Below the pieces are notes generated by a model, which saw only the letters and a list, made by a program, of their open reading frames with translations, was not told the origin of the DNA and searched no databases. 55,170 nt of DNA from a virus. A program made the translations under genes and the position numbers. Positions 4,792 to 15,748 of the stretch are shown here, piece after piece; positions within the stretch are counted from its first letter, which is position 1; every line of letters begins with the position of its first letter. The stretch lies in IMG/VR virus record IMGVR_UViG_3300045988_134649. One strand, 5' to 3'.

Positions 4792-5253
4792 TTACCATAC
4801 AAATAGATTATAACTTATTCCTGCGCCTATATACATGCCGCCCGGATAACCATAACCGACTTGCAACCCTAATCCCCAACGCTTCTTCTTCAACTTGATG
4901 GGGACCGAATGATAGACGTCATTCGTCACCGTCTGATATACCGTCTTCGGATACACCACCATACTATCCAGCCGAGGGTCTACATATCCGCTCACTACCG
5001 CACGATATAAACTATCTGAATACACCACTTGTCGGCGATGAAGCAAGGTATCACCTATCCGTGTCGTATCATCCGGTACGAAGCGCCAGAACACAGCCAT
5101 CGGTGCGGAGATGAGAAGCGTATCAGTCTTGACGATAGTCCTTATCCTCGTCTCGGTTCTGACCTCTGCCGGAGGCTGCTCGTGCGGACGGAACCAAACC
5201 ACCACACAAGCAACTGCCAGCAATACAACCAATATCCACGGTAACCTTTTCAT
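4792..5253 (-). CDS. Membrane-anchored lysis-cassette protein (spanin-like candidate)
   Basis: N-terminal [20 protein letters not shown], Gly-rich C-terminus. Overlaps the endolysin stop by 4 nt. Confidence 0.45.
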
Positions 5254-5774
5254 TCCTCGAACCTTAAATCGTTAATCCGATTCATCCACCCCCGTTTGAA
5301 TTTATTGTTCGCCGGACGTTTTTTGCATATATCCTCGATGAAGTCGAACCGTGCAATCTTAATCATGTCGAACAACTCACGAGGATTCTTGGCATTCACC
5401 GCGGCAATGGTCTTGGGACCAACAATGCCATCCACAGTAACACCAAGCAAACGTTGAGGAATCTTGATGCCATGTGCACCCGATGCCCACACCCAATCGA
5501 CAAGGATATTCGCCACAGACTGGCTCGTTATCAAATCGGCTTTCCATCTGTCCCAATAATGCGGCTTGAGCACCCGTTTAACGACATCCTCACGGGTAAG
5601 CAGACGCAGGTCATCCACGTCTATATCACCGTCACCGTCCTTGTCATAGCCGCATGACTTCCACGTACCGATAGTCACACCCATATTCGTAGCACCTCCA
5701 AGGTCTGCCGGGTCATTCACGAAACCGCCTTCCCATTTTAGGATAAACGGTGCAAGTTGATTCACATTCGCCAT
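5250..5774 (-). CDS. Endolysin, GH108-type muramidase with PG_binding_3-like C-terminus
   Basis: [28 protein letters not shown] is the GH108 N-terminal signature. [14 protein letters not shown] is a peptidoglycan-binding motif. Confidence 0.85.
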
Positions 5775-5796
5775 TTCAATTTTCCTCCTTATTCAA

Positions 5797-6138
5797 TTAA
5801 TACCCATTTTGCGGTTCTCTATCACCGCACTTCTTTCTCTCACACCGTTTCAGTGCCAGTTCCAGTTTCAGGTCAGAATTAGCCTCCTTCAGTGTAAACA
5901 GCTCATCCTGTGCCTTACGGAGCCGGTCAGTCTGCTCCACAAACCGCTGTTCCTTCTTCGAAAGCTGCTTCTGAAGGAACTCGTTGTACTCCCGTAATGC
6001 CTTGAACTCCTCGACATCAGCATGTGCGTCCTCAATACGCGCGTTGGTCTTACGGGACATCCACCACTTGATAAGCTGCTTGATGCCCTCGATGCCACCG
6101 AGTGCGGTCACCAACATAACCCAATCATTCATATCCAT
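5797..6138 (-). CDS. Holin or lysis-associated TM + coiled-coil protein
   Basis: Single N-terminal TM (WVMLVTALGGIEGIKQLIKWW) followed by a coiled coil. Immediately upstream of the endolysin. Confidence 0.45.
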   Translation of the reverse strand: MDMNDWVMLVTALGGIEGIKQLIKWWMSRKTNARIEDAHADVEEFKALREYNEFLQKQLSKKEQRFVEQTDRLRKAQDELFTLKEANSDLKLELALKRCERKKCGDREPQNGY

Positions 6139-6295
6139 TTCACCAATTCATTTAATAATCTACTAATAACCATATCTTTGTCCGACACCGCACAAATGTA
6201 CATCAGACGAAATCAAACAAGTTGTTGAATTACAATTTTCCACTGACATTCCGTGACAGCAAAAGTAATTGCTTCCACAGCCTCGAAAAAGGACA

Positions 6296-6340
6296 TAAAA
6301 AAAGAGCTCGATGACAACGTAAGTTGCCACCAAGCTCTTG
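6296..6340 (-). terminator. Rho-independent terminator downstream of the invertase genes
   Basis: On the minus strand, AAGAGCT/AGCTCTT stem (6302-6308 / 6333-6339) followed by a U-run (A-run 6297-6303 on the + strand). Confidence 0.6.
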
Positions 6341-6397
6341 GTGTTTATATGCATTTCTATAAGCAAATATAGGAATGCATATTTGAAATCCCATTAC

Positions 6398-6991
6398 TTA
6401 TTGCATCCTTTTTAAATGGTCATCCAATGTTTTAGGATTGCATTTCAATTTTCTACAAATGGCAGCTTTAGAATATCCGTATTCAAGCATAGTTTTAATC
6501 AATCCTTCTTTACCTGTCAGCTTGTAATGCGAGTTATGCCCACCCTTATGCCGCCCTAATTTCTGTCCTTCGGCAACACGCCTGGCAAGACCTTCTTTGG
6601 TCCGTTGCGAAATCAAATCACGCTCAATCTGAGCTGACAGACCAAAAGCGAAGGCAAGTATCTGAGACTGTATATTGTTACCCAACTCATACTTCTCCTT
6701 TACAGTCAGAACAGTGATTTTTTTTTGCATGAGAGTGTTTAGAATGCTCATCACTTCCATCAGACGACGCCCAAGACGACTAATTTCAGAGCAAATAAGG
6801 GTATCGCCCTTCTTGAGCTTCTTTAGTAAGGTGCCAAGCTTCCGTTCTTTTGCAGACTTGGTTCCGGATATGATTTCCGACACCCATTTGTCTATTTGCA
6901 GTTCTCTTATCTTACAAAACCTCCCTATCTCAAATTTCTGATTCTCAACTGTTTGTTTATCTGTACTGACTCTAATATACGCGTAAATCAT
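6398..6991 (-). CDS. Small serine recombinase (resolvase/invertase family), copy 1
   Basis: N-terminal MIYAYIRVSTDKQTVENQ (catalytic Ser motif), RLGRR, C-terminal HTH (GYSKAAICRKLKCNPKTL). 197 aa, typical of DNA invertases. Confidence 0.85.
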   Translation of the reverse strand: MIYAYIRVSTDKQTVENQKFEIGRFCKIRELQIDKWVSEIISGTKSAKERKLGTLLKKLKKGDTLICSEISRLGRRLMEVMSILNTLMQKKITVLTVKEKYELGNNIQSQILAFAFGLSAQIERDLISQRTKEGLARRVAEGQKLGRHKGGHNSHYKLTGKEGLIKTMLEYGYSKAAICRKLKCNPKTLDDHLKRMQ

Positions 6992-7013
6992 TTTTCACGC
7001 AAAGATATAAAAC

Positions 7014-7625
7014 TCAATTACAAGGTAGAAAATAGCACATCCTTATAAGATGCCTATCCAAAGTTATCGGATTACATTGCAGCCTTCTACAAATGGCAGC
7101 TTTGGAATATCCGTATTCAAACATCTTTTTTATTAGCCGTTCCTTTCCAGTCAATTTATAATGGGAATTCTGAACACCTGGTTTTCGCCCAAGCTTCATC
7201 CCCATGGCTACCCGCCTGGCAAGTCCGGCTTTGGTTCTCCTTGATATATCTTCTCGCTCCCTTTGAGCAAATAAGACCTTTAAAAACGTATCTTGCACAG
7301 AATCTGAATCATCTTTAATAAGCTTGTCATCACGGATTTCTACAATATTGGCTTTGGCAATCAGACAATGAGATATGATAGCTATAACCATATACGCACA
7401 GCGTCCAAGCCTTGAAAGTTCCGTAACATATATGGTATCGCCTTTGTCTATCGTATTCAGTATCTTGCCTAATTTCCGTACATTGGGATGCCTGGCACCA
7501 GACACACTCTCTTCAATCCACTTATCTATAATGAGCCCCTTGCGCTTGCAGTATTCAGTTATCTCGTACCGTTGGTTTTCAACGGTCTGTTTCTCACTGC
7601 TCACTCTGATGTAACCGTAATTCAT
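7014..7625 (-). CDS. Small serine recombinase (resolvase/invertase family), copy 2
   Basis: MNYGYIRVSSEKQTVENQ, RLGRC, C-terminal HTH (GYSKAAICRRLQCNPITL). Clear paralog of 6398..6991. Confidence 0.85.
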   Translation of the reverse strand: MNYGYIRVSSEKQTVENQRYEITEYCKRKGLIIDKWIEESVSGARHPNVRKLGKILNTIDKGDTIYVTELSRLGRCAYMVIAIISHCLIAKANIVEIRDDKLIKDDSDSVQDTFLKVLFAQREREDISRRTKAGLARRVAMGMKLGRKPGVQNSHYKLTGKERLIKKMFEYGYSKAAICRRLQCNPITLDRHLIRMCYFLPCN

Positions 7626-7712
7626 AGGATTCTGTTTTTCTCCTTTAAAAGTAAGAATTTATATGCAATTAATAAAGCATCGAACATAAAGTTTTCATAA
7701 TCCGGAGGATTC

Positions 7713-7760
7713 GCCCCTTAAATGTGTTAAGTATGGCAGAGAAGCAGGATATTAGAGAAG
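7713..7760 (+). repeat. Shufflon recombination-site repeat, copy A (+ orientation)
   Basis: GCCCCTTAAATGTgtTAAGtATGGCAGAgAAGCAgGATATTAGAGAA is shared with 8146..8190 (direct) and 9521..9565 (inverted). Confidence 0.75.
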
Positions 7761-8101
7761 AGCAAATGACTGTAACCAACAGTGTGGATTATCTGCGAGG
7801 CTTGAAAGGAAATAACAGCGTGTTGATTAGCGTATTAGATGCTATATCGAATAAGGCAATTGTTAATAAAGGACATGTTAAGACTGACGTCCTTAATATC
7901 GTCGGGAATTATGTTGCATATTCAACATCAGATATTGATGGCAGTGGAATAGATGGTTGTCTTATCTCGATAAATCCGACCGGGCTTGAAGGTGCACAGA
8001 TTAAAGTTGCATATAATATGAGCATAATTAAAGTTAGAGCTGCCTATAATGTCGATGGAGCAGCGAAATGGTCAGATTGGAAGTCAATAACTATTACTTG
8101 A
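7733..8101 (+). CDS. Shufflon cassette A protein (variable, fibre-associated candidate)
   Basis: ATG at 7733 (MAEKQDIREEQM...). The N-terminus is shared with cassettes B and C. The C-terminal WSDWKSITIT is shared with B (WSEWKSVTLT). Confidence 0.6.
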   Translation: MAEKQDIREEQMTVTNSVDYLRGLKGNNSVLISVLDAISNKAIVNKGHVKTDVLNIVGNYVAYSTSDIDGSGIDGCLISINPTGLEGAQIKVAYNMSIIKVRAAYNVDGAAKWSDWKSITIT

Positions 8102-8129
8102 ACTAACTATTTATTTCCTCCTTTCGCTT

Positions 8130-8141
8130 TTCTGCCATACT
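8130..8141 (-). repeat. Partial inverted copy of the shufflon core (TTCTGCCATACT)
   Basis: Reverse complement of AGTATGGCAGAA (8163-8174; also 7730-7740). It flanks cassette A on its 3' side, so cassette A is bracketed by inverted cores. Confidence 0.6.
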
Positions 8142-8145
8142 CTTT

Positions 8146-8190
8146 GCCCCTTAAATGTATTAAGTATGGCAGAACAAGATATTAGAGAAA
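8146..8190 (+). repeat. Shufflon recombination-site repeat, copy B (+ orientation)
   Basis: GCCCCTTAAATGTatTAAGtATGGCAGAaCAAGATATTAGAGAA. Similarity to copy C continues for about 110 bp into the coding region. Confidence 0.75.
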
Positions 8191-8540
8191 ATACGATGAG
8201 TGGTGGAACTCCGGCACGGCTGCGTGGACTGGCGGCAAACGGCAACAGTATATCACCGACAATTCAAGAGGTGGCAGAAACTTTCGGTAAAGGATATGCT
8301 GCAGATTTGAATAACGAAACAGATTATGGAATTTCTGGCATGTTTAACGCTGATACTATTAATCATCCACCCATTTCATCAGATATTATTTTTGGCATAT
8401 ACTCAAATCATAGAGCAAAATATATAACAGGAGGAGTGTTTTTGTATCAAATAGCTGTCCCAGAAAATATGATAGGAATGTATGTAAGACGATGCTGGAA
8501 TGGGAATTGGAGCGAATGGAAGTCAGTAACTCTTACTTAA
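8166..8540 (+). CDS. Shufflon cassette B protein
   Basis: MAEQDIRENTMSGGTPARLRGLAANGNSISPT closely matches the cassette C N-terminus. The C-terminal part diverges. Confidence 0.65.
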   Translation: MAEQDIRENTMSGGTPARLRGLAANGNSISPTIQEVAETFGKGYAADLNNETDYGISGMFNADTINHPPISSDIIFGIYSNHRAKYITGGVFLYQIAVPENMIGMYVRRCWNGNWSEWKSVTLT

Positions 8541-8543
8541 AAC

Positions 8544-8590
8544 TGTGGAATTATTCCACAATACCGTGGAGCACTCCACAATATTCCACA
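8544..8590. promoter_or_regulatory. Cluster of five TCCACA/TGTGGA half-sites (candidate protein-binding array)
   Basis: TGTGGAAttaTTCCACAataccGTGGAgcacTCCACAatatTCCACA. Includes the perfect palindrome TGTGGAATtATTCCACA (8544-8560). Confidence 0.4.
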
Positions 8591-8807
8591 GTATTGTTAA
8601 AAGAGGATTTTGCCTTATATTAATGAAAATGAATGCAATATTGTTGCGCAATCATTCTGGTATCAATTTTGTACTATGGTTTATGTCTTAAAAGTTATCA
8701 GTAACTTGTAGTTGTTATGGTTAGGCAATAGGTATTAGTTGCATTAAGGTTTAAAGACATTTTGTTCATATTGATTTTCATTCGGAAACTCTCTTTGTTT
8801 GGCATTG

Positions 8808-8840
8808 CATCCCGGTCTGTGAAGTATCGGGATGTTTTTA
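8808..8840 (+). terminator. Hairpin + T-run inside the shufflon spacer
   Basis: CATCCCG (8808-8814) / CGGGATG (8828-8834) followed by TTTTT. The loop carries the CGGTCTGTGAAG motif. Confidence 0.4.
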
Positions 8841-9129
8841 CTTAGATGGTTGCTGTTTCCGACTAAATACTGTAACTTTGTATAGTTAGCCGATATACTA
8901 CTTAACTAATACTATTTTATTCTTTGGAATAATGAAAGTATTCTCGGTCTGTGAAGATCGGATGCTTTTGGTGGGTAATGCCGCCAATTATTCCAGTTAA
9001 GTGTTTAGGTTTTATGCAGTCTACCCCATGAATGGACTGCATTGACAAGAAGTATTCTGCCCGTTCTGACCGAGATGGCCGGAACGGGCATAACCAGAAT
9101 GAAAATCCACATGGCTTGCAGAACCACTA

Positions 9130-9546
9130 TCATAAGGTACCAATCCTTTTTAAAACTATGTATGTTTCAGTGCTTCTGTTGTTTTTGATAAAAAAGCTAC
9201 CATTTGTCGTTTTTCGACCGAAAGCAACACCTTTAGTCCCATCTGTATAATCACAGTAAAAATTTGAACCTGCATCTGACACAAAACCTTTTGAATAGGA
9301 ACCAAAAGCAAATATAGCAGTTGCTGCATTGTTGGGGGATGCAAGCAAATACATACCGTACCCCAAGTCGCCAAGGTCTTTTTCCTCTTTTGCCGCCAAT
9401 GTAAAGCTATAGGTATATATTCCCATTGCGTTCATTACCTCTTCCAATGTTGGTGATATACTGTTGCCGTTTTTATCCAGTCCACGTAATCTTGTAGGTG
9501 TTCCACCACTCATCGCATTCTCTCTAATATCTTGCTTATCTGCCAT
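9130..9546 (-). CDS. Shufflon cassette C protein (copy currently co-oriented with the tail-fibre operon)
   Basis: ATG at 9546 (MADKQDIRENAMSGGTPTRLRGLDKNGNSISPT...). Lies downstream of and on the same strand as 10103..14065 and 9634..10089. Confidence 0.7.
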   Translation of the reverse strand: MADKQDIRENAMSGGTPTRLRGLDKNGNSISPTLEEVMNAMGIYTYSFTLAAKEEKDLGDLGYGMYLLASPNNAATAIFAFGSYSKGFVSDAGSNFYCDYTDGTKGVAFGRKTTNGSFFIKNNRSTETYIVLKRIGTL

Positions 9547-9565
9547 ATTCTTACATTTAAGGGGC
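9521..9565 (-). repeat. Shufflon recombination-site repeat, copy C (inverted relative to A and B)
   Basis: The reverse complement reads GCCCCTTAAATGTaagaatATGGCAGAtAAGCAaGATATTAGAGA. Confidence 0.75.
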
Positions 9566-9633
9566 ATAATTTCCGGATGGAAATATTACCCGATTTAACA
9601 TTTTAATAATTAACTCGTTTTGTAAATTATAAA

Positions 9634-10089
9634 TCAAATTTTTCCGTAATATCTGAAGAACTCAAAAGGAGTTCTCACATCAAGATAACCGTCTACCTCT
9701 TCGTTGGCTTCCGCTTCCATTTCAAACGCGGAATTTCCGTAAGCCTTATCACCTACATTTATCCAACACCGGTTACGGCATAAGTGATACATGTAGGATA
9801 TTGCGTACTCCACACCATACTGGAGGTAGAACCACAACGGGCATAGCAGATATACCCATAAGTTGAATCCGGTAAACAGCATGATTACCGTCAGCAGCAC
9901 AGCGGATGCAATCATGCATTCCTCCCATTGGCGCACATGAATCGCCTCATGGTTAAGTGTACTCTGCTTCATCTCCTCCTTGCTTTTCTTGGTGAAGACG
10001 AAACATCCCAATGTGATGGTGTTGTAACCCTGCCACAGCAGCCATTTCGCTAACTTGCTTTCATAAAAAACTTTCATACATCTTTCCAT
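9634..10089 (-). CDS. Membrane protein with HExxH motif (DUF4157-like metallopeptidase signature)
   Basis: ITLGCFVFT...LNHEAIHVRQWEE resembles the DUF4157 HExxHVxQ core. Followed by at least two hydrophobic segments. Confidence 0.45.
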   Translation of the reverse strand: MERCMKVFYESKLAKWLLWQGYNTITLGCFVFTKKSKEEMKQSTLNHEAIHVRQWEECMIASAVLLTVIMLFTGFNLWVYLLCPLWFYLQYGVEYAISYMYHLCRNRCWINVGDKAYGNSAFEMEAEANEEVDGYLDVRTPFEFFRYYGKI

Positions 10090-10102
10090 TTATATTAGTT
10101 TG

Positions 10103-13100
10103 TTAATTAACCGGGTTTTCGTAATCATGGTCACCCAAATCAGCATACGAATACGAAATGCCATTTTTATTGGTTGAAATCCAGACTCCTCCCAATGATA
10201 TGAATTCATAAACACCAGGCTCTGTGATATGAGCTTTATTGCAATAATGGTATTGACCGTCAACCAACTCCATATCATTAAATCCGTCCGATGTCACAAC
10301 TGACACATAGCCATATGTGCTCCCTGAAGAATTATTATATATGATCAAGGATATTTTCATACCCACACATTGGGCAGAGCTGGGAAGCATGTATTCACTT
10401 TGGCCTATTCTACTGGGACGCCCATTGCCAAAATCCGAACCAAAATTGGGGTTCAGGTAAAAGTAGCCTTCATTGGAACTAAACCCATGTATCTTTATGA
10501 ATGCCGCTGTCGCTGTAATTTTTCCTTGAACATTGACTTCTCCAGTCTCACCATCAATGTTACAAGTGACATTTCCATTCTTATCCCTTGCCAATACGTT
10601 CTGTACCACCAAATCATCCACAAGGATTTCATCGGCACGTATCTTTCTTATTAAAGCCATATCCATAGCTACAAACATAAACTGCTGTGCCGCCTCCCAA
10701 TTAGCATCACCGTCTATCGAGGTAGGTGCGACAGTGACCGACGTACCGTAAGCCCGTACCCGAAACGGAATGGTGCGATTGTTGAATGTGGCCAGTACGA
10801 TGTCATGGTAATCTTCATTCCAGACATATGTGTTGCCCTTGGCGAAAAAACCTCTCGGACGCGGCTCACTGGCATCCCGTCCGCTTGAACCGTCATAGCT
10901 GACACCCACGGACATCTCCGCAATGAAACTGTCATTCCATGCCGAAGCGTCAGCCTGGCTCTGGTAACAGCGGACAGAGAAAGTTGAATACCCTGCAGAA
11001 GCGTTGACCGTAATCTCGGAAGCCCTCGAAGGCCCTGCGATGGCGCTCCATATCCCGTTGCTGTACCCCCGTGCGGCCAGATATCCGTCCGGATAAGTCA
11101 ATGTGGCGCTGCCGAGCGTCCGCTTGGCATAGACCCGAAAAGCTGAAGGCACCAAAGACCCGGCACTGCTCACCCGTATATTGCTGCATGTACTGATGAG
11201 ATATACCATGCCGCCATCCTGGGTAAGCTGCTCCCATTCGGCCGTGTTCACTTCTCCGGTAGGAATATAGCCGTAGCTCTTTCCACCGTTCTGTGTCTGT
11301 AGGATGCGCCTATCCTGACTGTCATTGACTGTCCATAGAGGTGGATTCGATGTATCAACCTTGGAGAGCCATGACCGGCCACCCATCGTGCAGATGGTGA
11401 GCTTTTTGAATGGAGTATTAGCTGTGCGCCACTCACCGCCAGCCTTGACGGATTCGCCGTCACCGCCAGGTTTTCCTGGATTACCGTCGTTACCATCCAC
11501 GACCATGGGTATAGTTTCCCGGTCCACGACCTGCCCACCCACATAATAGACAAATTGTAACTGCGTCGTGAAGTTCTTCGGAGAGATGGACGTGCCGTTC
11601 TGTATCTCGACCTCTGCGCCTCCGTCCTTACTGTATTTCAGTACGCCATCCGTCGTGATGGAAGTGCTACCGCCTACAGACTTGGTACGTGTACATGACA
11701 CCCCGGCTACACTATAAGTGCCGTCCTTCCGTTTGCTGACTGAAGAAACGGAAGGCACCAGCCTATAGAGTACCGCATCACTGCCCGGATTACCGGCACG
11801 CACCCCGGTAACAGTGAACACCAGCTCACGGCTTATATCCGTATCCTGTACTGTAGCCGTAACGGTTATCCTGACCTCTGAACGTGCAGGCATCGAAATG
11901 CCGGAAGCCACGGTAAACGCTATCACACCCGTATTGACATTGTAGCTCTCCGTGACACCGGAGGGCGTCACGCATGAGATGGACTTGAGCTGTAGTTTCT
12001 TCGTACCATACCACATGCCGACGGTCGTATTGAGCACGGACTGCGAAACAGTCTTTCCTTCGTATGTCAAGGCAATGCTTTCCATCTCGTTGTCGAAATC
12101 GGCTACAATGGCCGACTCGCCGTCAAAGCCCCATTTGGCCCAGATGGCTGCCGGGCTGAACGCGCTCCATAGACCGTCCTTCTTCGTGCGGCAACAAGCC
12201 CACTCGTATGGCAGGCTCTCGCTGACACCAATCGGGTCATCATGCCAGCCGGACGGCACGTAGTCATCAGTCTGTGATGTGGCAGGGGTTGCCGGAGCGA
12301 TATTTTCCGCAGTATGCTTAAAAATCCATTCATAATCCCTACCGTCACGCCCGTCCTGGCCGTTCTCCACCAGCAGCTCATACTCAGCGGTATTCAAGTC
12401 CCCGGTAATGGTATAACCGTAGGACTTGCCGCCGTTCTGGGTCTGCAGGATACGGCGCCCCTCATTGGTCGTCTGAGTCCACATCGGAGGATTGTCTGTA
12501 CCACCGGGAGCGACACATAAAAACACACGTCCGGCCATCCTGGTAATACCCATGTAAGGTATATGCTTGCCGGTCTGCCAGTCACCGCAATTGGTAATGC
12601 TTGTACCGTCTGCACCCTTGCTGCCAGTCACACAGATGGCGTTCGTTGTGGTGGAAGTATCGTCAGTAAAGACTATCCTTGTCCGGGTCCAGATATACCA
12701 GCCGTTTTTCCACGCCGGAGAGTCTGTCTGCCACTCGCCTCCGGTTGTGGTGGCCGATGAAGAGGAAAGGTAGTATTCTTCGGTAATGGACTTGATGCCC
12801 TTGCCGTCGGCTCCCTGCCCACCACTGATACAAGCCGCTTGGGTGTACTTGACTTCGCCATCAGAATAGACAATCTTCGTCCGCGACCAGATATACTTGC
12901 CGGCTTCCCATTCTGGGGAGGTAGTCTGCCAACCGTCCACCGGGGCAATGACATTCGACACCGATATCGCGTATTCCACATCGGTAGACTTGATGCCCTT
13001 GCCGCTTTCTCCCTTTGCCGCATATTTCAGCCAGTCGGCATTGCCGTCTGCCGGTTCTGTAGACGTGCCTTTCTCATTGACACATATCCATGAGCTGCCG

Positions 13101-14065
13101 TTATGCGTCACCTCATCGTAATAGGCATACTTCTCATCCTTTTCCCACGTCCCCTTGAATAGCGGCACCCGGAAAGCCTCGCCGGTGATGTCATCTACCT
13201 GGAATATCTTGCCGGACATGATGACGTGGCGAAAAACAGCCGAGTAGTTGTCTGCAGGAATACCATGCACGGTACGGCCTTTCTTCTTACCAATCCACGA
13301 CATCTCTTGTGCCGGTTCCGGGTCCCATGTATTGGCGTGGTCAAAGAAAGTAATGCAGTTGTTGCCACCCACCGTATCGATAAGGATGTACGTCTGTCTA
13401 TCCTCATCTGTAAAGTTACCCGTCTGGGCGAGTACCATCGCATCCCCCGGCTTCCAGTCGGTACCCGGTTTCGGCGTCATGACGAATGTCTTGGCAGTGT
13501 AATCGGCAGAAGTCACCCGGAACTTCATCTCCTCGAACCCCTGCAGCTTGCCTTCAGGTGACTTGGTGACGAAGTAGGTGGTCAGAATGTCATCGACAAA
13601 CTGGCTCAGACCGTCGGCATCGGTCAGGTCAGGGGTTATGGTATAGCTACCGTCACCATTATCGCTCCACTCCTTGACCGTACACCCACCTCCGGGAGAG
13701 GCACACATACGTCCCTTGAAATAGGTCACACGGTTATAGGCAATCTCTGGAACAAACAGACGCTTCCTAAATATGCCTTCCTCCATCTCGAGAATGCCGT
13801 TCTTGTCGATGCACCCTCCGGAAATACCGGTGATGAATTCGCCGAACTTGACCCAATCTCCGAAGGTAATCGGAAAAGGAGTGCCGTCAGCCTGGTCTTT
13901 GCGGAGGAACACCTTTGATAATTCCTCGATGCTCATTCCTTGTTGAATGAGTTCAAGAATGCCAATAAATGTCCGTCCAACCCTCTCTGCGGTATTCTCT
14001 CCCTCAGAAGAGGCGTTCCTTATCTGTAGAGCAAGTTTCCTTAATATGTCAAGTGTATCAGGCAT
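10103..14065 (-). CDS. Tail fibre / receptor-binding protein (1320 aa)
   Basis: Large ORF with collagen-like G-x-x runs (GQDGRDGRD, DGNDGNPGKPGGDG). Internal domain duplications (WQT.SP.W..G.YIW.RT.IV twice; PP.WT....RRILQTQNGGKSYGY twice). Sits in the virion block. Confidence 0.8.
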   Translation of the reverse strand: MPDTLDILRKLALQIRNASSEGENTAERVGRTFIGILELIQQGMSIEELSKVFLRKDQADGTPFPITFGDWVKFGEFITGISGGCIDKNGILEMEEGIFRKRLFVPEIAYNRVTYFKGRMCASPGGGCTVKEWSDNGDGSYTITPDLTDADGLSQFVDDILTTYFVTKSPEGKLQGFEEMKFRVTSADYTAKTFVMTPKPGTDWKPGDAMVLAQTGNFTDEDRQTYILIDTVGGNNCITFFDHANTWDPEPAQEMSWIGKKKGRTVHGIPADNYSAVFRHVIMSGKIFQVDDITGEAFRVPLFKGTWEKDEKYAYYDEVTHNGSSWICVNEKGTSTEPADGNADWLKYAAKGESGKGIKSTDVEYAISVSNVIAPVDGWQTTSPEWEAGKYIWSRTKIVYSDGEVKYTQAACISGGQGADGKGIKSITEEYYLSSSSATTTGGEWQTDSPAWKNGWYIWTRTRIVFTDDTSTTTNAICVTGSKGADGTSITNCGDWQTGKHIPYMGITRMAGRVFLCVAPGGTDNPPMWTQTTNEGRRILQTQNGGKSYGYTITGDLNTAEYELLVENGQDGRDGRDYEWIFKHTAENIAPATPATSQTDDYVPSGWHDDPIGVSESLPYEWACCRTKKDGLWSAFSPAAIWAKWGFDGESAIVADFDNEMESIALTYEGKTVSQSVLNTTVGMWYGTKKLQLKSISCVTPSGVTESYNVNTGVIAFTVASGISMPARSEVRITVTATVQDTDISRELVFTVTGVRAGNPGSDAVLYRLVPSVSSVSKRKDGTYSVAGVSCTRTKSVGGSTSITTDGVLKYSKDGGAEVEIQNGTSISPKNFTTQLQFVYYVGGQVVDRETIPMVVDGNDGNPGKPGGDGESVKAGGEWRTANTPFKKLTICTMGGRSWLSKVDTSNPPLWTVNDSQDRRILQTQNGGKSYGYIPTGEVNTAEWEQLTQDGGMVYLISTCSNIRVSSAGSLVPSAFRVYAKRTLGSATLTYPDGYLAARGYSNGIWSAIAGPSRASEITVNASAGYSTFSVRCYQSQADASAWNDSFIAEMSVGVSYDGSSGRDASEPRPRGFFAKGNTYVWNEDYHDIVLATFNNRTIPFRVRAYGTSVTVAPTSIDGDANWEAAQQFMFVAMDMALIRKIRADEILVDDLVVQNVLARDKNGNVTCNIDGETGEVNVQGKITATAAFIKIHGFSSNEGYFYLNPNFGSDFGNGRPSRIGQSEYMLPSSAQCVGMKISLIIYNNSSGSTYGYVSVVTSDGFNDMELVDGQYHYCNKAHITEPGVYEFISLGGVWISTNKNGISYSYADLGDHDYENPVN

Positions 14066-14580
14066 TATTCACCAAGTACTCTAAAAGTTACACGATTAGC
14101 ATTAATCCCTCCATTTCCTCTATACAGCGGAAAGTCTTTTTTGTTATCATTCAAATACCGAACACATTCTTTCATATACCTATCAGCAACAAAGAAAGCA
14201 TCATTATAAGCTATAAGTTTCTCCTTAAAATCAGAACGCGATGAATATTCGTTATCTTTATTGACAAATCCAAAACGGGTGACATTTCCATCTCCATTTT
14301 TCACGATACGAGCATAGGTATAATATGCTAATGTCATTTTCAGCCCTACAAAGGAACGTTTGCCTCCACATTCTATGGTATAAGAACTACCATTAAGCAA
14401 CTCACTATAATTTTCCGGATGTTCTTTCACATCTAAGAATAAAGCATCACCCAAAGCTGACTTCAAATCAATGTTCTCCGACTCCCGAATATATGCCTCT
14501 ATCTTTTCCGTATCGATGTGTATTGACATCGTACGAGCCAACTTATAGACCTCATCTGTTGTTATTAGACACTGCAGCAT
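14065..14580 (-). CDS. Hypothetical virion-block protein
   Basis: 171-aa ORF between the portal-like and fibre genes. The start may be the internal Met at 14529. Confidence 0.5.
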   Translation of the reverse strand: MLQCLITTDEVYKLARTMSIHIDTEKIEAYIRESENIDLKSALGDALFLDVKEHPENYSELLNGSSYTIECGGKRSFVGLKMTLAYYTYARIVKNGDGNVTRFGFVNKDNEYSSRSDFKEKLIAYNDAFFVADRYMKECVRYLNDNKKDFPLYRGNGGINANRVTFRVLGE

Positions 14581-15748
14581 TTCTTATATATTTAAGAGGT
14601 TGTACACTAAAGTCATTGGAAGGATTGAGAGGTTCATACCAATGCGCAAAAATTTTCTGAAAAGCCCGTTCAATCATGCGTTGTTGCTTTGACACAATAG
14701 AGTTATAGTATTCAAAAGCATCTTCCAATATATCCCCAGAAAAACCAACCTTACCAATCCGGATACAATACCAAGGCTCCTGCCCGAAAGCTGAATAAAT
14801 ACGTTCAACTACACTGGCATCAGTAACGGTAAACTCCTTATCATAATTTTTAGGACTAATATCCACAAACTCCGGTTTTTCTTCATCAGATTCCAAGGTT
14901 ACCTCTAAGACCTTTGTCGCATTGGTGTCTCCTTGTAATTGCACAATAGTATCAGAAAAACCAGTATCTTCGTTAGTCCTATCCTCTTTTATAGGATTTC
15001 CGTTTTCATCAAAACGTACCGAAGAAGCACCTTTCTTTGTAATTATCATCCCGGAAGGCATGAAGTTACAGCGCACATTACGATACTTCACATTGGCTAA
15101 TCCCTCATCCGTACTCATTTCCGTAATCACACGGTCAGCTCTTCCGATAGGATACACGAATTTCCCAGTGTTACTAATCCATAATATCTGCCCCTTATAG
15201 TTTTCAATCCCTCCGGCAGCCCGAATTTGCGCATAGACCACCTCCTTACGTGGATTAAATACATCTATAAACTCCACATTTTCTGGTATTACCTTTATGG
15301 CTTTTCCCTGACGGGTTTTCTTTCCTGTCCAATCCGGATGAACTGCGATTTTTGCGATATATCCGGATTCATCCTCCTCCAACAAACGGCAATTTTCAAA
15401 GGGGATGTGCTGTACTTCCACTATATCTGCGAACATATTATAATTAACATGTATCGCCATCCCATCGTAATCAGCAACATCCTTGCAGACGAAAGCATGG
15501 ATGTCATCTGCCGTATCTCCACGGCGGTTAACCACATATTCAGAAAAAGCAACCTCACGAAACCCATTTCCCTCTATGAAATTGGCATAACGTTCTGCAC
15601 ATTCGCTACCCGTTGAACTCGCAGCGATGATATTTCTTAGATGTTGGGGATATAAATTATCATCACCGTAGCTTTGGATGCCAAGATTACGTAAATAGCC
15701 CGTGTCAACACGCCTATTACTCTTCTTCTTTAATTCATTTACGTTCAT
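14552..15748 (-). CDS. Putative portal protein
   Basis: 398 aa in the head module. N-terminal region (YGDDNLYPQ...ECAERYANFIEGNGF) recalls portal annotations in Bacteroidota prophages. Not verified. Confidence 0.45.
   Translation of the reverse strand: MNVNELKKKSNRRVDTGYLRNLGIQSYGDDNLYPQHLRNIIAASSTGSECAERYANFIEGNGFREVAFSEYVVNRRGDTADDIHAFVCKDVADYDGMAIHVNYNMFADIVEVQHIPFENCRLLEEDESGYIAKIAVHPDWTGKKTRQGKAIKVIPENVEFIDVFNPRKEVVYAQIRAAGGIENYKGQILWISNTGKFVYPIGRADRVITEMSTDEGLANVKYRNVRCNFMPSGMIITKKGASSVRFDENGNPIKEDRTNEDTGFSDTIVQLQGDTNATKVLEVTLESDEEKPEFVDISPKNYDKEFTVTDASVVERIYSAFGQEPWYCIRIGKVGFSGDILEDAFEYYNSIVSKQQRMIERAFQKIFAHWYEPLNPSNDFSVQPLKYIRNAAVSNNNR

Follow-up and report, generated by a model that had tools for sequence, protein, structure and literature searches.

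The 55,170-nt viral DNA recorded in IMG/VR as IMGVR_UViG_3300045988_134649 (here called the window, meaning the whole stretch that was analyzed) carries, at positions 6398 to 9565, an array of three small open reading frames (ORFs) beside two genes for small serine recombinases. We call the ORFs cassettes A, B, and C and the recombinases InvL (6398-6991, minus strand) and InvR (7014-7625, minus strand). Each cassette starts at a copy of the same short repeat, whose asymmetric 13-nt core, GCCCCTTAAATGT, occurs at 7713-7725 (plus), 8146-8158 (plus), and 9553-9565 (minus) and nowhere else in the window, against an expectation of 0.08 copies; 0 of 100 shuffles reached three. At 5 to 8 nt after each core follows (A)TATGGCAGA, which contains the ATG of the ORF. 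Site A (7713-7740, plus; ATG at 7733), the invertase-proximal boundary of the array, heads cassette A (7733-8101, plus; 122 amino acids [aa]); the internal site B (8146-8173, plus; ATG at 8166) heads cassette B (8166-8540, plus; 124 aa); and site C (9539-9565, minus; ATG at 9546-9544), the expression site, heads cassette C (9130-9546, minus; 138 aa). An earlier note on this DNA, made from its letters, had described a repeat across the three ORF starts, with two copies in one orientation and one inverted, and all the sequence features that it listed are present.

Cassettes A and B lie in the silent orientation, and only cassette C is co-oriented with a 151-aa ORF (9634-10089) and a fiber-like ORF (10103-14065), as the note had read from the ORF map. 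Alignment bore out its further claim that the three proteins have a common N terminus (MA(E/D)(K)QDIRE...LRGL..N) and diverge beyond it. The expressed cassette lies 67 to 88 nt behind the late structural operon, in the same orientation, and the distance from the end of the fiber ORF to the site is 537 nt. Between the stop codon of ORF 9634-10089 and the core of site C lies the fixed left flank of the expression site (9566-9633, minus), which ends in ...TTTCCATCCGGAAATTAT followed by GCCCC; the left flank of site A, ATCCGGAGGATTC, is homologous to it. Downstream of their sites, cassettes B and C have a common inverted repeat of 98 nt at 83% identity (8175-8272 and 9437-9534), and A and C have 27 nt in common at 93%.

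Scans for sigma-70 promoters and terminators gave nothing above shuffled sequences, with models that are not appropriate for Bacteroides, and a custom scan for the Bacteroides −7 box (TAnnTTTG) was used instead of the sigma-70 scan. No such box was found within 100 nt upstream of any cassette, which is weakly consistent with the description of the cassettes as promoterless in the earlier note. Because the fixed flank holds no TAnnTTTG box, the cassette at the expression site is presumably transcribed by read-through from the fiber operon. A degenerate extra site lies at 7642-7658 (plus), adjoining the start codon of InvR; of the 17 positions of CCTTTAAAAGTAAGAAT, 15 agree with CCCTTAAATGTAAGAAT of site C, and a decayed start (TATATGCAA) comes next. 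The element is probably what remains of a former cassette boundary.

Public assemblies served as natural experiments for inversion. The site pattern picked out 82 contig stretches in IMG/VR, and the expression-site flank picked out 71 more among metagenome contigs. Two of the related loci, L048 and L019, have invertases 99 to 100% identical to those of the window, a 151-aa ORF that is 100% identical, and a fiber gene at 97 to 100%, and they differ from each other by the inversion of a 1,419-nt segment, which retains 99.93% identity between collinear flanks. Their four junctions are reciprocal, each left flank being joined to the cassette of the other locus, and the switch falls inside TGCCCCTTAAATGTA. 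In a second, independent pair, L160 and L172 (contigs of 204 and 244 kb), a 1,447-nt segment is inverted at 99.45% identity between flanks that are collinear at 99.0 to 99.4%. A two-cassette version of the array was recovered in both states as well (L084 and L085 versus L086).

Each of the three cassettes of the window was found at the expression site of relatives whose neighboring genes are 99 to 100% identical: C in L048 and L129, A in L039 and L005 (the cassette itself at 99 to 100% identity), and B in L019, L052, L071, L094, L142, and L172. Among 207 unique sites on the 82 viral contigs, the same left flank recurs with many cassettes and the same cassette with many left flanks, and in 157 related loci one expression-site flank, counted 107 times, leads into 34 different cassette starts. 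With three sites in the window (plus, plus, minus) and up to eight ORF-heading sites per locus in relatives, the array has the makeup of a multiple-inversion system. The invertase-driven multicassette switch proposed in the earlier note is supported by both orientations in near-identical assemblies, by reciprocal exchange in the core, and by the one flank with its 34 starts; cassette homologs fixed in place and lacking flanking inverted repeats, which would have spoken against the proposal, are the opposite of what related phages contain. In addition, of 72 metagenome contigs, 8 break off in the first 60 nt beyond the core, which fits mixed populations but could also reflect the repeats. Two metagenome contigs, L146 (6494-9679) and L126 (8875-10348), have an array with expression-site-type flanks on both sides, and L146 carries two convergent copies of the 151-aa ORF (100% and 87%); these are either chimeric assemblies of two co-occurring phages, joined via common cassettes, or a real double-ended arrangement.

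The position of the exchange could be narrowed by polymorphisms. Position 0, the base that immediately precedes the core, goes strictly with the left flank, and positions 11, 12, and 14 go with the cassette. Judged from these linkages, the crossover lies within GCCCCTTAAA, 8 to 20 nt upstream of the ATG and in the 5′ untranslated region (UTR), a placement limited to core positions 1 to 10. A crossover in the 5′ UTR means that whole ORFs are exchanged, so that of the claim that whole small ORFs are swapped at their start codons the whole-ORF swap stands, while the crossover moves upstream of the codon. Variable bases in the first codons remain linked to their cassette, which argues for site-specific over homologous exchange. 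The confinement of the exchange to a short core, despite about 100 nt of 83% homology directly downstream, likewise indicates site-specific and not homologous recombination.

The meeting of flank and core has a side effect on the reading frame. An upstream ATG at 9565-9567 (minus) arises where the fixed flank (…AAATTAT) meets the core (GCCCC…). With cassette C it is in frame (MPLKCKN-MADKQ), and it underlies a 145-aa ORF call for this cassette (ATG at 9567), a start that we rejected since the ATG is a product of the flank/core junction and is out of frame elsewhere. With B-type spacing, as at the L019 junction, the same ATG opens a 12-codon upstream ORF that overlaps the real start. Different cassettes would thus meet differing upstream reading frames at the expression site.

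Upstream of site B lies an arm (8126-8144, minus) that is the reverse complement of a cassette start (AGTATGGCAGAAAAGC) and moves with the 3′ end of cassette A. It includes the 12-nt inverted element TTCTGCCATACT at 8130-8141, which is 100% complementary to 8163-8174 and 94% complementary to 7730-7745. The arm is conserved upstream of internal sites in relatives, with the consensus TTTCTCTGCCRTRTYCTTT abutting GCCCC. The element thus exists as the earlier note had it, but the role of a crossover site does not suit it, for it was in a recombined configuration in 0 of 25 occurrences among related loci. A 45-bp palindromic site in which the arms at 8130-8141 and 8163-8174 would be the recombinase half-sites was likewise rejected because the distance from core to ATG varies by about 3 nt, the outer sites have no arm, and the arm is never recombined. 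RNA folding suggested another function. The predicted probability that the AUG is unpaired was 0.33 at internal sites versus 0.72 and 0.68 at expression sites, and 0.36 versus 0.67 in chimeras; for cassette B of the window it was 0.00, with a 12-bp stem and a minimum free energy of −22.3. On these predictions, the arm may mask the AUG of co-oriented downstream cassettes and so restrict translation to the first one.

Pfam and PHROG confirmed the two small serine recombinases that the earlier note had placed beside site A. InvL (197 aa) matches Pfam Resolvase (E = 1.7e−33) and PHROG 125 ("DNA invertase"), carries the catalytic-serine motif YIRVSTDKQ, and scores 301.9 bits against NCBIfam NF009949 ("master DNA invertase Mpi family"), above the cutoff of 272. 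The shufflon-proximal InvR (203 aa; Pfam Resolvase, E = 2.5e−26) is 54% identical to InvL and scores 194.6 bits with NF009949, below the same cutoff; we class it, by these comparisons, as a related but divergent paralog. Both ORFs have the architecture of small serine recombinases (a catalytic domain followed by a helix-turn-helix [HTH], about 180 to 210 aa), with PF00239 over residues 2 to 143, a YIRVS(T/S) motif, and weak HTH matches at residues 157 to 194. The closest solved structure for InvL is that of Gin (E = 8e−12, over the catalytic domain only), and gamma-delta resolvase is also among the best.

The two invertases had been regarded as a distinguishing feature, a view that the relatives do not bear out, many with the same sites carrying a single gene. 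Where relatives have the same core, they carry either a pair of invertases or a single one, which may be like InvR, like InvL, or of a third type (66% identity to InvL); the pair is hence a feature of a lineage and not a requirement. At least one invertase gene adjoins the array in every related locus. Its retention beside the array, although other genes have diverged to 30 to 66%, argues for a cis-linked functional pair, and the adjacent invertases presumably catalyze the inversion of the sites. A variant of the core, TTAAACGTAC, is partly like ARACGTWCGT, a putative Mpi target motif, which may be a lead. Two Bacteroides-type −7 boxes lie upstream of InvL, one at 7000-7007 (minus; TATCTTTG) in the 22-nt gap after InvR and the other at 7059-7066 (minus; TAACTTTG) inside the 3′ end of InvR, with TTTG in the −33 zone. 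InvL may have its own promoter, independent of InvR.

What do the cassettes encode? In the 157 loci and the window, 400 sites with complete ORFs yielded 261 unique proteins, mostly of 120 to 140 aa, which form 34 C-terminal families at a threshold of at least 40% identity, a single locus having as many as 8. Truncation affects only 5 of the 261, indicating that silent copies are maintained. The cassettes have neither signal peptides nor membrane segments, and no Pfam or NCBIfam family was found for any of them. An AlphaFold2 model of cassette C (pLDDT of 77) has a disordered N terminus and a beta-sandwich over residues ~40 to 138. The comparison of cassette structures with fiber tips that the earlier note had suggested was made for this model, with a divided outcome: in BFVD, a collection of predicted viral protein structures, it weakly matched (E = 5e−5 to 1e−3) uncharacterized phage proteins as well as tail-fiber and tailspike proteins, whereas the PDB held no match at E < 1e−3 and TM scores were about 0.3 to 0.5.

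The C-terminal domain of cassette B gave a further lead. An exhaustive HMMER search against 1.8 billion proteins matched it (E = 2.7e−5) to residues 784 to 853, the extreme C terminus, of an 880-aa protein with Sipho_Gp37 and Phage_fiber_rpt domains. The same domain also occurs as tandem copies fused to SGNH esterase domains; full-length homologs of cassette B are few and partly frameshifted. On these matches, the variable, predicted beta-sandwich is probably homologous to C-terminal modules of phage tail-fiber proteins. The match to a siphovirus tail-fiber module supports the suggestion in the earlier note that a fiber-distal or adhesin component is varied, and the cassette products are presumably virion adhesins. 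The short N terminus that the cassettes have in common would then dock the protein on the tail (fiber or baseplate), and the variable domain would bind the host surface.

Taken together, we consider it likely that the locus is a phage multiple-inversion system that swaps complete tip-protein ORFs behind the tail-fiber operon. We propose that Mpi-family small serine invertases recombine asymmetric sites with the core GCCCCTTAAATGT, each lying in a 5′ UTR ahead of a small ORF. A fixed site at the end of the tail-fiber late operon would be the expression site, and each of the remaining sites would stand before a silent cassette, which may point either way. When the expression site recombines with a site of opposite orientation, the resulting inversion would bring a different complete ORF, start codon included, to the position behind the operon. 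The upstream arm at internal sites may mask the AUG of downstream co-oriented cassettes. In the virion, the N terminus would be an adaptor docking on fiber or baseplate, and the beta-sandwich, as at the distal end of tail fibers, would bind the receptor. A population of lysogens would release particles with different tip proteins and would in this way hedge against the phase-variable surfaces of Bacteroides.

Several points weigh against this proposal. The opposite orientations were seen in assemblies that come from different samples, and inversion within a single population is something that we infer from them. We likewise infer the link of either invertase to the sites and the incorporation of the cassette products into virions. 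Dyad symmetry is not obvious in the core, an uncommon state for sites of small serine recombinases, and a polymorphism at position 5 (C/A) is cleanly linked to neither flank, so the crossover is mapped to the short core and not to a dinucleotide. The promoter argument comes down to the absence of one consensus motif. The masking hairpin is a thermodynamic prediction, and the arm could also be left over from the duplication of a cassette. Finally, the fold matches of cassette C are weak.

These points leave room for a reading in which the switch is real and the cassette proteins are not tip proteins but phase-variable accessory proteins, the candidates being fiber assembly chaperones or the products of prophage morons that act in the lysogen, for example, in superinfection exclusion or antidefense. 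We regard it as unlikely, though some observations fit it. The array sits between the tail genes and the lysis module, which is a typical moron position, the proteins lack a Pfam or NCBIfam family, and their fold matches are weak. There is also a precedent, as the invertible segment of phage Mu swaps whole chaperone genes (U/U′). At this locus, however, the fiber gene is constant, and a chaperone would be swapped without its client. The lack of signal peptides and membrane segments also speaks against this reading, and the homology of the C-terminal domain of cassette B to the distal end of a fiber and to esterase-fused modules, together with the position of the expressed cassette directly behind the late structural operon, favors tip proteins.

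That there is no programmed inversion at all, the cassettes being fixed paralogs whose arrangements stem from homologous recombination or mosaicism between strains or from assembly artifacts at the repeats, is in our view very improbable. The orientation differences were all seen between assemblies and none within one sample, short-read assemblers can misjoin at repeats, L146 and L126 look chimeric or unusual, and repeats alone would also give contig breaks at the site. Against this stand the exchange in a core of 10 to 15 nt just upstream of the long homology, the reciprocal products in two independent pairs with flanks more than 99% identical on contigs of 200 to 470 kb, the one or two invertase genes that always adjoin the array, and the near absence of degraded silent cassettes. 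Just as improbable is that the sites are flipped mainly by the chromosomal Mpi of the host while the phage invertases serve another purpose (host invertons or another phage locus): NCBIfam places InvL among the Mpi equivalogs, the targets of Mpi in trans are numerous and dispersed (PMC4747536, PMC5903667), and one site type does not call for two invertases, many relatives having one, but every related locus keeps an adjacent invertase while its other genes diverge, and the 55-kb window has no further copy of the core.

Returning to the inversion system proposed above, we note that its sites have a second apparent role. The unit 7713-8172, which opens with the core of site A and extends as far as the next cassette start, is 99 to 100% identical at the nucleotide level in divergent phages of a second lineage, whose fiber is only 30 to 60% and whose invertase is 66% identical, and the homology starts exactly at the first base of the core. 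Identity bounded by the site in divergent phages indicates that the sites also bound horizontally exchanged modules. Moreover, a 5.03-Mb bacterial contig (SCPN01000011.1) contains two different module-bearing prophages, L127 and L149, one with two invertases and the other with one, an opportunity for cassette exchange between co-resident phages. A more speculative and rather doubtful extension is that the sites are integron-like exchange points at which unrelated, co-resident Bacteroides phages swap entire receptor-binding cassettes of a community-wide pool, that phage and host invertases cross-act, and that the AUG-masking hairpin limits translation strictly to one cassette. The points behind it are the site-bounded identity of cassette A, the two prophages in one genome, and the Mpi membership of the invertase. 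If it were true, the master invertase of the host could shuffle phage tip proteins, or a prophage could flip the capsule promoters of its host, and such cross-action would couple both sides of the arms race between capsule and receptor.

The proposed system resembles the Gin (Mu G segment), Cin (P1 C segment), and Min (p15B) switches in that a phage-borne small serine invertase adjoins an invertible region that sets which specificity determinant related to the tail fiber is expressed and in that expression comes from a fixed upstream late operon. With Min it also has in common more than two crossover sites in both orientations and hence many isomers. In those switches, a constant 5′ part of the fiber gene is fused to variable 3′ parts, whereas here the exchange point is in the 5′ UTR and complete ORFs change places. 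The 26-bp sites of Gin, Cin, Hin, and Pin consist of two imperfect inverted 12-bp half-sites, unlike the asymmetric core, and the gix/cix/hix consensus TTNTCNAAACCNNGGTTTNGANAA has no match in the window with up to 3 mismatches. The invertases are of the Mpi family, and the cassettes number up to 8 or more per locus, from a pool of at least 34 families. Bacteroides are not known to have the Fis/enhancer context. The parallel to Gin, Cin, and Min that the earlier note drew applies, then, to the multisite inversion switch and not to the enzyme type or the site.

Integron arrays offer another likeness, as they too are promoterless single-ORF cassettes bounded by a recombination site, expressed according to position, and shared by divergent carriers; unlike integrons, the locus has no IntI tyrosine integrase and no folded attC sites, and it works by inversion and not by excision and insertion of circles. 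As in the R64/IncI1 shufflon (Rci, pilV), multiple inversions would choose one of several adhesin ends and give variation at the population level. Rci, however, is a tyrosine recombinase, its 19-bp sfx sites lie within the coding sequence, and only C-terminal segments are swapped, so that with serine-type recombinases next to the array and sites in 5′ UTRs the locus is not a shufflon in the strict R64 sense.

Another system for comparison is a tail-fiber shufflon of BV01-like phages of Phocaeicola vulgatus, described in a preprint of September 2026 (PMC13596623). Its three cassettes overlap the 3′ end of the fiber gene, alter the C terminus and the stop codon, and are separated by a directional 10-bp motif, TGGGAGAACT (PMC13596623). 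Both systems belong to temperate phages of Bacteroidaceae, have a recombinase-flanked, multicassette invertible region beside a tail-fiber gene, and are proposed to counter phase-variable capsules. In contrast to the intragenic BV01 shufflon, the cassettes here are complete separate ORFs and the fiber is unchanged, and the BV01 motif is absent from the window. With Mpi of Bacteroides fragilis, which flips promoters at many dispersed chromosomal loci (PMC4747536), including the capsular-polysaccharide invertons, the locus has in common the recombinase family, the host clade, and inversion that varies surface interactions; it differs in that the enzyme is encoded by a phage, lies beside its presumed sites, and moves coding cassettes relative to a fixed transcription unit. 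Full-text literature searches brought up the classical Mu and P1 switches, systematic inversion surveys (PMC9881135, PMC5903667), and the BV01 preprint, and no description of the present system.

We conclude that the locus is a real, widespread programmed-variation module, a variant of the phage multiple-inversion host-range switch that is distinguished by whole-ORF exchange at a 5′-UTR site, Mpi-family enzymes, and a large shared cassette pool. Probably, one phage genome makes particles with different host-surface specificities in this way. Bacteroides evade phages by flipping the promoters of capsules and surface proteins. Among the few known means by which temperate Bacteroides phages keep up are diversity-generating retroelements (DGRs) and one recently reported fiber shufflon. 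The switch uses invertases of the same family as the capsule switching of the host. For such phages, a host range predicted from one assembled gut-phage genome would be wrong, and assemblies break at the site. The compact core site and the small invertase make a ready tool for cassette switching in Bacteroides, and the cassettes would provide a natural collection of small, modular domains for binding to Bacteroides surfaces.

The carrier is a temperate Bacteroides phage, and the switch is common in human-gut phages. The window contains an integrase-like ORF (126-1364), a GH108 lysin (5250-5774), a large terminase subunit, a head protease, and a portal-like gene. Positions 5166 to 11541 are 100% identical to a 364-kb metagenome scaffold (ERZ28589098 scaffold_9, SAMN10722253), the exact cassette proteins of the window were found in 1,262 and 2,692 blocks of public assemblies, and contigs with identical cassette proteins reach 2.8 Mb. 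The label Bacteroides uniformis on two homologous protein records is the sole source of host names. A search of species-representative genomes with the 151-aa ORF as the query gave a single contig of a metagenome-assembled genome. Among 50,697 GenBank phage records, neither a megablast search with 6000-10500 nor a tblastn search with cassette C gave a match, and no annotated isolate among them carries the module. The prophage L084 represents a minimal form, with fiber, a 147-aa ORF, a cassette, an inverted cassette, one Resolvase gene, lysis genes, and a tyrosine integrase. In L160 and L172 (302-1036), a Mom-like gene (PF25680) and an 80-aa ORF stand in place of the lysis genes beyond the invertase pair, showing that the module occupies differing genomic neighborhoods.

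The fiber-like ORF (10103-14065, minus) encodes a 1,320-aa tail-fiber-like or host-specificity protein (PHROG tail fiber/host specificity, E = 1e−13 to 1e−18) that is constant and not recombined. In tblastn, it matched annotated tail-fiber genes of crAss-like phages and otherwise only distant or unannotated records. The fiber gene (10001-14000) has a G+C content of 49 to 53%, compared to 33 to 44% in the remaining phage, and the length of the fiber ranges from 1,320 to 1,821 aa among relatives with identical cassettes. The last fixed gene before the expression site, the 151-aa ORF (9634-10089, minus), encodes a HEAIH (HExxH) motif with hydrophobic stretches after it; its match to a PHROG "protease" (phrog_15610, E = 1.4e−14) is weak, and it falls in no Pfam or NCBIfam family. 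Beside the expression site it is 87 to 100% conserved in most relatives and absent in L013, L047, L072, L074, and L167. One gene (DUF6712) upstream of the fiber-like gene, ORF 14552-15748 (minus) strongly matches the PHROG "portal protein" (E = 2.5e−127); it lies downstream of head protease and capsid-region genes, an odd order for a tailed phage, and the annotation may be wrong.

Between the 3′ ends of cassettes B and C lies a noncoding spacer with hairpins (8541-9129, 590 nt), which is inside the 1,419- and 1,447-nt inverted segments of relatives and always inverts along with B and C. The spacer has no Rfam match, and an Rfam search of 6000-10200 gave nothing above noise. A hairpin motif, TC(C/T)CGGTCTGTGAAG, is repeated in the spacer at 8810 and 8942, with a T-run after the 8810 copy. 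A GC-rich hairpin lies at 9055-9093, and a 42-aa ORF (9005-9133, minus) is called in many assemblies.

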